A stretch of 64,000 nt of DNA from an uncultured bacterium (GTDB lineage Bacteria > Patescibacteriota > Saccharimonadia > Saccharimonadales > 2-12-FULL-41-12), in the NCBI GenBank assembly GCA_963834265.1, contig CAWIAU010000001.1, positions 199,572 through 263,571 of the forward strand. The letters are read 5' to 3'. Shown piece by piece: positions 46,175 to 49,811 of the stretch. Numbering within the stretch: the first letter of the stretch is position 1; each line of letters starts with the position of its first letter. Made by a program: the position numbers and the translations under genes. The notes below the pieces were generated by a model. It searched no databases. It saw only the letters and a program-made list of their open reading frames with translations, and had not been told where the DNA came from.

Positions 46175-46798
46175 ATGCTTGAGAATCTGGATGTTGCGAC
46201 TATCATAATCGTGTTCGTATGTTTGGTGATCGCTATTACCATACATGAGGCGATGCATGCCTTTACCAGCCACTGGCTGGGAGATGATACGGCGCACAGA
46301 GAAGGACGTATTTCACTTAATCCGATCCGGCACGTGGACCCTTTTGCGACCTTGCTTTTGCCTATGATCACACTGGTACTATTCCATGTGCCTTTGCTTG
46401 CGGCCAAGCCGGTACCATTCAATCCTAACAGAGTAAAATATGAGGAGTTTGGTGCTGCAATGGTAGCATTGGTCGGTCCACTGACAAACCTGGTTCTTGC
46501 AATATTCGCAGCATTGTTCCTGCATATCTTTCAGGGTTCACTGGGGTTGGAGGGGATACGAATTGTGAGTATCTTTATGTTTATAAACGTCGGCCTGTTT
46601 GTATTTAACATGATTCCTATTCCTCCTCTCGATGGATCCCGTGTGCTGTACGCTGTTGCCCCTGAACCGGTACAGAACTTTATGGCGCAGCTCGAGCAGT
46701 TCGGTATATTCATTGTGTTTGGACTCGTGTTGGCGGTTCCGGCATTCGGCGAATTTATATCCGAGCTCAATAATCAAGTCATCCAGTTCCTGATTTGA
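46175..46798 (+). CDS. site-2 protease family (M50) membrane metalloprotease
   Basis: HEAMH (HExxH) in the first TM helix and a downstream LDG motif. 207 aa, polytopic. Confidence 0.85.
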   Translation: MLENLDVATIIIVFVCLVIAITIHEAMHAFTSHWLGDDTAHREGRISLNPIRHVDPFATLLLPMITLVLFHVPLLAAKPVPFNPNRVKYEEFGAAMVALVGPLTNLVLAIFAALFLHIFQGSLGLEGIRIVSIFMFINVGLFVFNMIPIPPLDGSRVLYAVAPEPVQNFMAQLEQFGIFIVFGLVLAVPAFGEFISELNNQVIQFLI

Positions 46799-46995
46799 GA
46801 TATAATAATAAATGGCTGGGACGGGCAGCCGGCGAATGATTATCTTAATAGTTATTAGATTAGGGAAGTCAATATTTATACCGGCCGTGGCTGGTATGTG
46901 AGATTACCCACTTGGTATTGCCAGGGTTAATCTAGCCGGTCCGACCTGGCTTTTTAGTGAAAAAAATCGGGGTGTAGCTTAGTTGCCATCCGCGT

Positions 46996-47091
46996 GCGGC
47001 TGGGGTGAGCTAAGCCAGTGGCAGTCTGCAAACGAGTCAACTCTTGCAGACTGGTTTGCAAATATGTTGCGACGGGGTCGCGGAACGTGAC
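46996..47091 (+). repeat. 96-nt element, copy 1 (tRNA-Pro locus)
   Basis: Ungapped hand alignment with 47215-47310 gives 65/96 identities. Conserved blocks are GGCTGGGGTGAG, AGCCAGTGGC, ACTGGTT, CGGGGTCGC and GTGAC. Confidence 0.7.
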
Positions 47092-47123
47092 CGGGATTAC
47101 CTTAAAAGTTATTATTATGCCAT

Positions 47124-47199
47124 CGGGGATTGGCGCAGTTGGTAGCGCGCACGGCTGGGGGTCGTGAGGTCGCTGGTTCGAATCCAGTATCCCCGACCA
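47124..47199 (+). tRNA. tRNA-Pro (anticodon GGG), CCA encoded
   Basis: Hand fold: acceptor CGGGGAT/ATCCCCG, D arm GCGC-AGTTGGTA-GCGC, anticodon arm CACGG-CTGGGGG-TCGTG, T arm GCTGG-TTCGAAT-CCAGT. Confidence 0.92.
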
Positions 47200-47214
47200 A
47201 TATTTTATGAAATC

Positions 47215-47310
47215 CAGGCTGGGGTGAGGTGAGCCAGTGGCTCACCGCAAGGAAACCTTCCGATGCCAACTGGTTGGCAATAGTGAAGTTTCGGGGTCGC
47301 CGAAGGTGAC
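47215..47310 (+). repeat. 96-nt element, copy 2 (tRNA-Pro locus)
   Basis: Same length as copy 1 and collinear with it, 219 nt downstream. Runs directly into a tRNA-Pro-like T-arm/acceptor/CCA. Confidence 0.7.
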
Positions 47311-47347
47311 TGTGAAGTCGCAGGTTCAAGTCCTGTCACCCCGACCA
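47220..47347 (+). ncRNA. candidate 128-nt tRNA-like RNA (acceptor, D-like hairpin, T arm and CCA, but no anticodon arm)
   Basis: The 5' TGGGGTG pairs with the 3' CACCCCG-A-CCA. There is a canonical T arm GCAGG-TTCAAGT-CCTGT and a D-like hairpin GTGA-GCCAGTGGC-TCAC. The roughly 75-nt middle forms several hairpins but I could not fold a 7-nt anticodon loop. Confidence 0.35.
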
Positions 47348-47471
47348 CGGACGAAATTATCGGTTTTAATGAACCCGGCCCTCAAATTTTAAATTTGTAG
47401 GCTGTTTTTAACCTGTTTTTCGTAATTCTTTTATTATAGCTGGAACACCATCTGAGTGGACGGATCGACTT

Positions 47472-48164
47472 CTAGCGAGTACCGGGCTTAGAAAGAGCAA
47501 TCGTGTAACATTGGGTACCAGCTTTGTGAACTTTGAATGTTCCCATAGCTTCTCTAGATTCAAGCGTCTCGCCATCAATCACCTTTTTTACTATTTCAGA
47601 TCCTGAACTACTGGTTTCTTTTTCTCCGGAGTAATCAGGAGTTGTATCTTTTTCAAAGTTTCCGCATAACACATATGTAGTGTCGTTAATAATCTTGTAT
47701 GTTGTACCTTGAACTAATGATTGAGCTAATTCTGACTCACTAGGCAGACTGTTATTGTTCTTGTAATACAAATGATCAATTTTCGTATTAATTTCTCTCA
47801 AATCGTTCGCCTTTTTTGCATCACGAGGATTTTCTGGCGGTCGGGTTAACCTGTTGTAGCCCATATATCCGGCAAGTATCAATAAGGCGAACACGGCTGA
47901 AATAGCCCACAATAACCAAACGGATTTCCGCGTTGCGCTCGTAAATTTCTTACCCAGAATAAAGAATACAGCCAGCGCCATTACCGCAACCGGACAGAGG
48001 AAAAGGATTACGATCATAAATCCCCATCCGGTTTCGGGTACGCCACGCAAAGCACCTGACATAATATCCCCGATGACAAAAATTAATATTTGAACTATAG
48101 CGAGTATAAAAATTGAGCCTGCTATGGATGCAAATAGTGCAAAAAGTTTTATTTTCGCAATCAT
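47472..48164 (-). CDS. polytopic membrane protein with a pilin-like C-terminal head
   Basis: Four N-terminal TM helices, then RDAKKANDLREINTKIDHLYYKNNNSLP. This resembles the RDAKR..DL..I..AL..YY start of type IV pilin globular domains. No prepilin leader is present. Confidence 0.6.
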   Translation of the reverse strand: MIAKIKLFALFASIAGSIFILAIVQILIFVIGDIMSGALRGVPETGWGFMIVILFLCPVAVMALAVFFILGKKFTSATRKSVWLLWAISAVFALLILAGYMGYNRLTRPPENPRDAKKANDLREINTKIDHLYYKNNNSLPSESELAQSLVQGTTYKIINDTTYVLCGNFEKDTTPDYSGEKETSSSGSEIVKKVIDGETLESREAMGTFKVHKAGTQCYTIALSKPGTR

Positions 48165-49464: not shown

Positions 49465-49468
49465 TAAA

Positions 49469-49811
49469 AGCCAGACTATCTATAAGCCGGGTTTTGTAAT
49501 CGTTGATCATCTATCTAGTCCCGACATTGCTATCAGGATCAAGCGGTTCTTATGAAGTATAATCGGCGGGAACCTATGTGAATATACTTCTCCTTGCAGC
49601 AGACAGGGTTTACCTCCTGACTACGTCACCATAATCAGCTGTGAGCTCTTGCCTCACTCTTTTCACCATCTCCTCCCGAAAGAGGAAGTATTGTTTCTGT
49701 GGCACTTTCCCTGGGGTTACCCCCGGTTGCCGTTAGCAACTGTCTCTCCCTATGCTGCCCGGACTTTCCTCCCCCGACGAGTCGGGGGTGATCAACCGAT
49801 AATCTGGCTAA
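49469..49811 (-). ncRNA. rnpB: RNase P RNA, bacterial type A
   Basis: The minus strand reads AGCCAGAUUAUC (P1)...CCCCCGACUCGUCGGGGG (P3) GAGGAAAGUCCGGGC (P4 5')...GUGCCACAGAAA...ACAAAACCCGGCUUAU (P4 3')...GAUAGUCUGGCU (P1 3'). The ends are approximate. Confidence 0.92.

Follow-up and report, generated by a model that had tools for sequence, protein, structure and literature searches.

A nested tRNA-Pro(GGG) locus in Saccharibacteria with a lineage-specific structured RNA at position 37/38 of the anticodon loop

In bacterial YrlA/Y RNA, in mascRNA and in engineered tRNA scaffolds, elements of a tRNA bear a foreign RNA domain, recruit tRNA processing enzymes and confer stability. In E. coli, the tyrT-rtT repeats consist of partial tRNA 3' ends, CCA included, that lie beside tRNA genes and arose by unequal recombination. 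To our knowledge, the only interruptions of bacterial tRNA genes are group I introns and, in rare cases, group II introns. Group I introns have been described in the anticodon loops of tRNA genes of Patescibacteria and other bacteria (PMC13011429; bioRxiv 10.1101/2020.01.27.920355). Protein-spliced tRNA introns at position 37/38 are found in archaea and eukaryotes, and archaea also have split and tri-split tRNA genes (PMC4390854, PMC2237900). Here we describe a nested tRNA-Pro(GGG) locus on a chromosome of Saccharibacteria (Patescibacteria), in which an outer tRNA-Pro(GGG)-derived gene is broken exactly at 37/38 of the anticodon loop by an insert of about 303 nt. The locus lies in a 64-kb stretch of DNA that was analysed as a whole and is called the window below. 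The insert (47006-47308) contains, in order, a structured module that we call E (copy E1), a spacer, an intact tRNA-Pro(GGG), a second spacer and a second copy of the module, E2 (Table 1).

Table 1. Coordinates of the features of the nested tRNA-Pro(GGG) locus in the window
Feature	Position	Strand	Basis
Outer 5' half, tRNA-Pro(GGG) positions 1-37	46968..47005	+	alignment to inner tRNA 5' half
E1, left copy of the module	47006..47091	+	model R1, pair table
E1 helices	H1 47006-47016/47020-47030; H3 47038-47051/47054-47069; H4 47077-47082/47086-47091	+	
Promoter-like site (GTGACC, 17 nt, TATTAT)	47087..47115	+	consensus scan only
Spacer between E1 and inner tRNA, holding the promoter-like site	47092-47123		
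Inner, intact tRNA-Pro(GGG)	47124-47199	+	ARAGORN; Rfam tRNA 61.4 bits
CTGGGG, anticodon-loop remnant ahead of E2	47219..47224	+	sequence
E2, right copy of the module, intact	47225..47310	+	model R1, covariation
E2 helices	H1 47225-47235/47239-47249; H3 47257-47270/47273-47288; H4 47296-47301/47305-47310	+	
Outer 3' half (A38, anticodon-stem strand, variable loop, T arm, acceptor strand, A73, CCA)	47309..47347	+	
Hairpin followed by TGTTTTT, possible end of the transcription unit	47378..47410	+	inverted repeat; inferred

An earlier note on this DNA had reported a normal tRNA-Pro(GGG) bracketed by two homologous 96-nt segments, and both observations held. The segments 46996-47091 and 47215-47310 are identical at 65 of 96 positions without gaps, no other 96-mer in the window, whichever the strand, exceeds 43 identities, and a repeat search recovered the same pair. 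Because 46966-47005 aligns with the first 37 nt of the inner tRNA, up to the anticodon loop CTGGGG, the 96-nt element is located at tRNA position 37/38. Both strands of the outer gene's anticodon stem were found (TGCGG and CTGTG), and ARAGORN called a tRNA-Pro(GGG) when 46968-47005 and 47309-47347 were joined in silico; the outer gene is therefore interrupted exactly between 37 and 38. The note had offered, among its hypotheses, an interrupted tRNA-Pro gene around an insertion with its own tRNA, and this anatomy was correct; a relative, L090, is nested in the same way, with perfect exons. When the insert was kept in place, the outer halves were not called by ARAGORN with intron search, and only the inner tRNA forms, in place, an uninterrupted cloverleaf whose anticodon loop has 7 nt. 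The inner tRNA is presumably the working decoder. Loci of this kind mislead tRNA annotation and tRNA-based estimates of genome completeness.

E is a genuine lineage-specific structured RNA that belongs to no described family. It is about 86-93 nt long and has three covarying helices, H1 of about 10 bp, H3 of about 14-16 bp and H4 of 6 bp, with the invariant joining strands UGA, GCAAGG and CGGGG. The earlier note had proposed aligning the locus from related genomes to look for covariation, and the alignment bore the structure out. Nine E copies from seven Saccharibacteria lineages were compared, with slid-partner controls and 500 shuffles; the sample of E is nine or ten copies, all from metagenome assemblies. 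Pairing was found in 93.5% of the pairing cells of the nine copies versus 36-42% with the partners slid, compensatory (double) changes were found at 21 of the 34 pairs, none of the 500 shuffles matched the observed values, and RNAalifold agreed with the fold. The A-T to C-G change that had been noticed between the two copies, in a hairpin of the form TGCNN-CTGG-NNGCA, is real, lies within H3 and covaries in the nine copies. The pseudoknot suggested between ACTGG and CCAGT was not upheld, because the loops vary (CTTG, CTAG, TAT and TGT in H3; TGT and GGT in H1). One G.U pair in H4 is invariant across the nine copies, which points to E acting as a plus-strand RNA. Under covariance model R1 the nine copies score 90-109 bits, and a divergent copy in L010 scores 41.7 bits. 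E is conserved across genomes whose adjacent M50 protease shares just 47-52% identity, and its presence at the same tRNA position in distant relatives shows that it is a real RNA element and not random debris. Rfam searches at the gathering threshold over the whole window, and at E <= 10 over 46700-47600 and the isolated L017 unit, gave only the inner tRNA plus a sub-threshold 6S RNA and no family for E, so that the note's remark that it could name no matching RNA class still stands. The literature search retrieved the survey of group I introns in Patescibacteria and no description of E. Saccharibacteria are host-dependent and have tiny genomes, with little space for junk; the finding matters in that a short, well-folded RNA with no family match sits at 37/38 and is strongly conserved in this group.

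The strand and distribution of E bear on whether it might act as DNA. We find it hardly credible that E works at the DNA level, through hairpins formed in DNA, as a recombinase target or as the terminus of a small mobile element that inserts into tRNA-Pro genes. tRNA genes are classical integration targets, the element brings a replacement tRNA with it, and the chimeric H1 helices found in the window's E1 and in the tRNA-proximal (second) E copy of L009 suggest crossovers within the GCC-NGT-GGC palindrome. However, no integrase, transposase or recombinase ORF lies within or beside 46799-47471, and on the opposite strand the invariant or frequent G.U pairs would turn into A.C mismatches. Further, each genome stretch examined has a single locus, and model R1 found no additional E copy in the 64-kb window. 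BLAST of phage and plasmid collections matched the tRNA part alone, with E absent; a viral-contig scan with a looser motif gave 50 matches, all due to chance and none scored by the E model; and a metagenome scan with an exact motif gave five, again all due to chance and in coding DNA. Unlike what att-site integration leaves, the orphan 3' half is only 81% identical to the 3' end of the inner tRNA, and no recombinase gene accompanies it.

The two sides of the outer gene differ in condition. The 5' half has the acceptor strand CGGGGTG, the anticodon-stem strand TGCGG and the loop CTGGGG, and its first 18 nt match the tRNA of L016/L030 at 17 of 18 positions. In the cloverleaf that ARAGORN drew for the joined window halves, the acceptor stem has 7 bp and the T arm is perfect, the D stem has only 1-2 real pairs, and the D loop, AGTTGCCA, lacks the GG (G18G19) of a functional tRNA; the outer gene of L090 has both an intact D stem and G18G19. 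E1 has a distally broken helix H1, whose cells are unpaired in the pair table, and R1 scores it at 90.0 bits, the lowest of the main copies, against 108.8 bits, the best of all, for E2. Judged from these features, the left part (5' half and E1) is decaying and the right part (E2 and 3' half) is intact. With a decayed D arm and a damaged E1, the outer gene here would no longer yield a tRNA. The idea in the earlier note that the flanks are decayed duplicates thus fits the left part, with its degenerate D arm and broken E1 H1, and does not fit the rest. Taken further, it would make the whole arrangement non-functional debris of duplication and recombination of a tRNA-Pro gene, in which the likeness of the copies reflects recent duplication only. 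Besides the visible decay on the left, this is consistent with arrangements that vary by locus, with the chimeric copies already mentioned and with tandem partial duplications in L009 and L034. It is nevertheless very improbable and is disfavoured by the covariation, in which 21 compensated pairs hold the three helices among lineages with about 50% protein identity. One fold fits both E1 and E2 at a sequence identity of only 68%, and the T arm, acceptor strand and CCA on the right are unchanged.

The right-hand unit reads, as had been claimed, straight from copy 2 into a tRNA-Pro 3' module. The sequence of 47310-47347 is CTGTG, AAGTC, the T arm GCAGG-TTCAAGT-CCTGT, the acceptor strand CACCCCG, A and CCA. 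This 3' half is identical to an intact tRNA of L018 at 36 of 38 positions, and its T arm, acceptor strand and CCA are identical to the intact tRNAs of relatives at 28 of 28. The inner tRNA matches it at only 29 of 38 positions (81% identity as a repeat pair), and the window therefore has no gene-conversion donor for the 3' half. The three acceptor-strand candidates listed earlier, CGGGGTG at 46968 and TGGGGTG at 47001 and 47220, are all present, and the last of these (47220-47226, made up of CTGGGG and the TG of E2) is complementary to CACCCCG at 47337-47343.

The best reading of the right-hand unit, which draws on predicted folds and on the conservation of the T arm, acceptor strand and CCA and which we hold only tentatively, is that E2 and the 3' half make up a non-coding, tRNA-like RNA some 128 nt long. 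UGGGGUG and CACCCCG would form an acceptor-like stem stacked on the intact T arm, with a genomically encoded CCA. The unit is probably on one transcript with the inner tRNA, and RNase P and 3' processing, i.e., the machinery of tRNA maturation, would excise and stabilise the RNA, whose ends we infer; E would be its functional domain, binding a putative partner. The earlier note had raised a tRNA-like RNA of this length, and for the right copy the idea remains plausible and has gained support. The right-hand unit has been kept while the left part decays, and E nowhere stands in for the tRNA. At minimum energy, the window unit and that of L017 fold so that the acceptor-like stem UGGGGUG/CACCCCG closes them, with z = -3.6 and -3.7. 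In L010 an E-like RNA stands alone, closed by the same GGGGU/ACCCC helix and lacking a T arm. A unit of E, T arm, acceptor 3' strand and CCA recurs directly 3' of tRNA-Pro(GGG) in L017 and L005, with 15-19 nt between tRNA and E, and the T stem of L017 has undergone a compensatory change from GCAGG/CCTGT to GCAAG/CTTGT. E plus a 3' half is also found in L090, there with the 5' part of the outer gene kept. Against the 128-nt RNA, the acceptor-like stem showed no double compensatory change in the four cases compared, the stem of L005 has a G.A mismatch, and the L005 fold lacks the T arm. CUGGGG is also simply the anticodon loop of the tRNA, and it may therefore have been conserved by descent rather than through service as an acceptor strand. 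In L004 and L034 an intact E is fused to 5' halves, with no T arm or CCA, and a tRNA-like scaffold leaves these fusions unexplained. Recombination among the repeated tRNA and E segments may have produced the varied arrangements of the relatives. If E2 and the 3' half do make a tRNA-borne RNA, it would parallel in nature what engineered tRNA scaffolds do and would add a new RNA to those of the Candidate Phyla Radiation.

Such an RNA would have relatives in design. As in tmRNA, including the two-piece, permuted form, a large domain foreign to tRNA is set within an acceptor stem, T arm and CCA, and internal processing could split the molecule as it does two-piece tmRNA. Unlike tmRNA, the acceptor CGGGGTG/CACCCCG has G3-C70 and not the G3.U70 alanine identity pair. 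The E copies of L005 and of L009 next to the tRNA are 1 nt longer, and so no tag reading frame is conserved. A tmRNA was ruled out by the G3-C70 pair, by the lack of an ARAGORN or Rfam tmRNA call in the window and by L009, which also encodes a standard tmRNA. The tyrT-rtT repeats resemble the unit in that a partial tRNA 3' copy with CCA adjoins a tRNA gene; they have no covarying multi-helix domain, whereas the unit here is structured and conserved across deep lineages. YrlA/Y RNA, mascRNA and tRNA scaffolds share with it a foreign RNA domain borne on tRNA elements. In contrast to these, E takes the place of the D and anticodon arms, and no associated protein gene was identified. There was no Rfam match to YrlA, and the unit ends in an acceptor-like stem and not in a Ro-binding stem.

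The position of E suggests a serious rival to the 128-nt RNA, although we consider it somewhat unlikely: E may be a new bacterial tRNA intron at 37/38, self-cleaving, self-splicing or removed by the host, and possibly homing into tRNA-Pro(GGG). Complete E-bearing genes would then give tRNA-Pro(GGG), and truncated copies, including both in the window, would be short-lived relics that arise once a redundant intact tRNA exists. In at least three different tRNA-Pro(GGG) backgrounds the borders of E fall precisely at G37 and position 38, and the flanking sequence matches the local tRNA. When E is removed in silico, the window yields a tRNA-Pro(GGG) and L090 a perfect cloverleaf. Position 38 aside, the outer exons of L090 equal the functional tRNA of a sister lineage, although about 15% of the positions in E itself differ; that the exons were kept fits a removed intron as well as, or better than, a scaffold. 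E is also patchy among close relatives, being present in about 4 of 10 lineages near the window, and tRNA introns are abundant in Patescibacteria (PMC13011429). On the other hand, no E-bearing gene was seen as the sole tRNA-Pro(GGG), an intact, E-less copy lying within about 50 nt in 7 of the 7 E-positive lineages at this locus. Five of the nine E copies are in truncated hosts, with helices still kept by compensatory changes, and the window's outer D arm lacks G18G19, so that a spliced product would be a poor tRNA.

Comparison with the known intron types bears on the same question. Like group I introns, E is a non-coding, structured RNA inside a bacterial anticodon loop, is found in Patescibacteria and is patchy in distribution. 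It is far smaller (about 86-93 nt versus about 200 nt or more), has three simple hairpins and no P3-P9 core, and, at E <= 10, matched neither a group I model nor any other ribozyme model. The last nucleotide of exon 1 is G37 (CTGGGG, followed by TGAG) where a U at -1 is usual, and no P1 could be drawn; a terminal G, as in the omega-G of group I introns, is present, since E reads GTG just ahead of A38. The host gene of E is usually truncated, with an intact copy alongside, again unlike group I. In a survey of 4,934 genomes, group I introns occupied nearly all anticodon-loop positions except 37/38 (PMC13011429). The 37/38 site, established by flank alignments in the window, L004, L034 and L090, is that of archaeal and eukaryotic introns, but by inspection and in the predicted folds no bulge-helix-bulge motif can be drawn at the borders of E. 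The 3' end of E (GAAGGTG or GAACGTG) is, on inspection, not complementary to loop nucleotides 32-37. We know of no splicing endonuclease in this bacterial group. Group I, group II and bulge-helix-bulge introns were ruled out by size, lack of a core and lack of the motif. As in split archaeal tRNAs, the halves are parted by other sequence in nested or split layouts; here they lie on one strand around an intact tRNA, and are not distant from each other with complementary leaders. These nested and half-gene layouts inform the origin of split and disrupted tRNA genes. It is quite unlikely that E is the first of a new class of small bacterial tRNA introns at the archaeal/eukaryotic-type site; as such, it would be a compact ribozyme that cleaves or splices itself, or else a substrate for some novel bacterial splicing pathway. 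If E is an intron at all, it would represent a new bacterial splicing system at the position that archaea and eukaryotes use; in a new class of this kind, the window and L090 loci would make one tRNA from within another, with a two-piece tRNA-like molecule possibly left over.

The closeness of E to an intact tRNA allows a further reading, which we judge decidedly improbable. E and the half-tRNA might be a cis-acting element of the tRNA-Pro(GGG) precursor that decides its maturation, with the duplicated 5' or 3' half competing with the real half for pairing and E acting as a sensor or protein-binding domain. E is on the same strand as the intact tRNA in its neighbourhood, up- or downstream of it; the upstream 37-nt half in L034 is identical to the adjacent tRNA's own 5' half; and the conserved unpaired junction nucleotides of E are aptamer-like. 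The idea is speculative, with no ligand or protein candidate, and in L010 a 3-kb contig carries an E-like RNA and no tRNA. Promoter-like boxes may also speak against a cis-acting role. The promoter-like site in the window ends about 8 nt upstream of the inner tRNA, and TATAAT/TATAGT-like boxes occur at the equivalent spot in L004, L009 and L034. These boxes, which resemble promoters in sequence and may act as such, separate the upstream E from the tRNA and suggest separate transcripts. At the other end of the locus, the hairpin that may close the transcription unit was not called by the terminator scan.

Two further features were considered and set aside. The six-nucleotide match between GCTTAG (46977) and CTAAGC (47010) is at chance level for a region of this size, and the other loci lack it. 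A short reading frame from GCA is open to TGA in both window copies of E, but the frame is shifted in L005 and in the tRNA-proximal copy of L009, and it lies inside the covarying helices.

The tRNA-Pro(GGG) locus of the window is nested and disrupted and contains a new structured RNA domain in two copies; this anatomy is secure. Re-reading the sequence bore out the description in the earlier note. ARAGORN and Rfam, two checks that it had proposed, found its tRNA-Pro(GGG) as the sole tRNA in the region, and a repeat search recovered the same pair of 96-nt segments. The segments share 65 of 96 ungapped identities; with both strands of the window compared, no competing 96-mer passes 43. In the repeat search, 46966-47005 repeated the tRNA's initial 37 nt, ending in the anticodon loop CTGGGG (repeat pairs D6 and D7), and therefore the 96-nt element starts within the anticodon loop. 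The segment 47312-47347 repeated the 3' end of the tRNA at 81% identity (D2), and anticodon-stem strands flank the element, TGCGG on the 5' side and CTGTG on the 3' side. When the outer halves were joined in silico, ARAGORN called the 77-nt product tRNA-Pro(GGG); its acceptor stem and T arm are perfect, its anticodon stem has three G.U pairs and its D arm is degenerate. A consensus scan placed a promoter-like site upstream of the inner tRNA, and an inverted-repeat search found a hairpin with a T run downstream of the locus. The antisense ORF is almost certainly spurious; it could get annotated as a hypothetical protein.

Features of the tRNA-Pro(GGG) locus and of related loci (window numbering unless a locus handle is given)
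Feature	Position	Strand	Remarks
6S/SsrS-like RNA	46810-46956	+	Rfam 37.8 bits, under the cut-off of 46.4
Terminator-like hairpin	46934-46951		end of 6S-like RNA
Outer tRNA-Pro(GGG), 5' half	46968-47005
E1, left copy of module E	47006-47091
ORF, 75 aa	47102-47329	-	TTG start; antisense across tRNA and E2
Inner tRNA-Pro(GGG)	47124-47199
E2, right copy of module E	47225-47310
Helix H1 (variable pairs)	47228-47232/47242-47246
Outer tRNA-Pro(GGG), 3' half	47309-47347
RNase P RNA class A	49467-49807	-	248.9 bits; 2 kb downstream of locus
6S-like match	L034 2657-2801		40.5 bits, also sub-threshold
tRNA-Pro(GGG) insert at 26/27	L090 2829-2986		intact, of another sequence type
Stand-alone E-like RNA	L010 681-770, downstream to about 600	-	41.7 bits, divergent copy
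PIN-domain toxin-antitoxin pair	L091 1268-1932
tRNA	L091 1941-2014		downstream of PIN pair

The module shared by the two segments, E, has three helices (H1, H3 and H4) that are supported by a MAFFT alignment of nine copies. Standard pairs fill 93.5% of cells, versus 36-42% with partners slid by 1-3 columns, and both-sided changes occur at 21 of 34 pairs; none of 500 shuffles attained the observed values. RNAalifold gave the same helices, and they are well supported. One G.U pair is invariant in H4 and such pairs are common in H1, and therefore the structure is read as RNA on the tRNA strand; that E is a DNA-level mobile site is less likely. Invariant nucleotides lie in joining strands and helix ends (UGA, GCC-NGU-GGC, GCAAGG, CGGGG). 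With a covariance model of E, the scores were 90-109 bits for the nine copies and 41.7 bits for the divergent L010 RNA; no Rfam family was found for E, even for the isolated unit with relaxed filters. The distal four H1 pairs (table, and equivalents) differ in almost every copy but retain their pairing, and this holds even when L034 is compared with its close relative L090. Mismatched, apparently chimeric H1 strands occur in E1 and in the second, tRNA-proximal copy of L009; these chimeric and variable strands suggest recombination within the GCC-NGT-GGC loop region. The L010 RNA lies 3' of an oxidoreductase-like gene on a contig without a tRNA; it has a closing helix UGGGGUGA/UUACCCCG and an expanded H4, and two terminator-like hairpins follow it.

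Scanning one genome per species with a motif turned up E in four Saccharibacteria assemblies (L004, L005, L009, L010); six other matches were chance, in coding DNA. Applied to metagenome contigs, this motif gave only chance matches, as did a looser one applied to viral contigs. BLAST against phages and plasmids matched the tRNA part alone and not E, and the covariance model detected no additional copy within the 64-kb window. Contigs encoding M50 protease homologues added three E-bearing lineages (L017, L034-39, L090) and seven without E after the 6S-like RNA, with a plain tRNA-Pro(GGG) or none (L016, L018, L020-29, L030, L031, L032, L091). The available copies number nine or ten, all from metagenome-derived assemblies. 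M50 identity to the window is just 47-52% in the E-positive L004, L005 and L009, and therefore E is spread across deep Saccharibacteria lineages; among close relatives its presence is patchy.

Wherever tRNA flanks exist, they place E between G37 and position 38. In the left type (L004, L034 and the window's left side) the order is tRNA positions 1-37, E, 38-46, a spacer that bears a TATAAT-like box and an intact tRNA; the 37-nt upstream half in L034 is identical to the 5' half of its own tRNA. In the right type (L017, L005 and the window's right side) an intact tRNA is followed by a 15-19-nt spacer, (anticodon-stem strand) CTGGGG, E and positions 38-76, which include the T arm, acceptor strand and CCA. 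In L009, two E copies lie side by side upstream of the tRNA, along with duplicated fragments. L090 has a complete outer gene interrupted twice, by E at 37/38 and at 26/27 by a tRNA insert between the arms of a 19-bp inverted repeat (CCCCATAAAACAATGGTGA/TCACTATTGTTTTATGGGG, one G.U position) that looks like an RNA processing stem. With both inserts removed in silico, the gene gave a perfect tRNA-Pro(GGG) cloverleaf that differs at position 38 alone from the tRNA of L034, a sister lineage. Such perfect exons, the exact same insertion site across different tRNA backgrounds and the patchy distribution speak for the main rival explanation, that E is a new type of 37/38 tRNA intron, but E is of a size, and lacks any known core or splice motif, that speak against it, and an intact tRNA copy is always present: all seven E-positive lineages at the locus have an E-less tRNA-Pro(GGG) beside E.

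The two sides of the window locus differ in preservation. The first 18 nt of the outer 5' half match one tRNA sequence type at 17 of 18 positions, and the D stem and G18G19 are lost; for the 3' half the match is to another type, at 36 of 38, with the T arm, acceptor strand and CCA at 28 of 28. E1 scores lowest with the model and E2 highest; in E1 the distal H1 lacks pairing and seems to be a chimera between two variants. Such asymmetry speaks for a right-hand unit, E2 plus the 3' half, that is being maintained and a left-hand unit that is decaying, and plain debris is a less likely account of the locus. With only 29 of 38 positions in common with the 3' half, the inner tRNA cannot have been the source of a gene conversion of the T arm on the right. 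Minimum-energy folds of the right-hand units of the window and L017 are closed by UGGGGUG/CACCCCG adjoining the T arm (z = -3.6 and -3.7); that of L005 is less convincing. We favour the reading that E2 plus the 3' half is a tRNA-like non-coding RNA, which would be matured along with the tRNA, because the unit is kept in truncated form in three lineages, because the E fold is kept in truncated hosts and because E never replaces the tRNA. A cis-regulatory role of E in tRNA maturation is less likely. The closing stem, RNA ends and function of the unit we infer.

The genes beside the locus encode MiaA, a metallo-beta-lactamase-fold protein and an M50 site-2 protease; the assignment of the window to Saccharibacteria rests on these neighbours and on the best protein matches. 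The M50 protease gene is followed by the 6S-like RNA and then by the tRNA-Pro locus. The order M50 protease, 6S-like RNA is kept in every Saccharibacteria locus fetched by synteny, and the Rfam model for 6S may detect too few such RNAs in this lineage. In all these loci but L091, tRNA-Pro(GGG) is directly 3' of the 6S-like RNA; in L091 the PIN-domain pair takes its usual place. RNase P RNA is also found near the tRNA-Pro locus in L005, L009 and L016.
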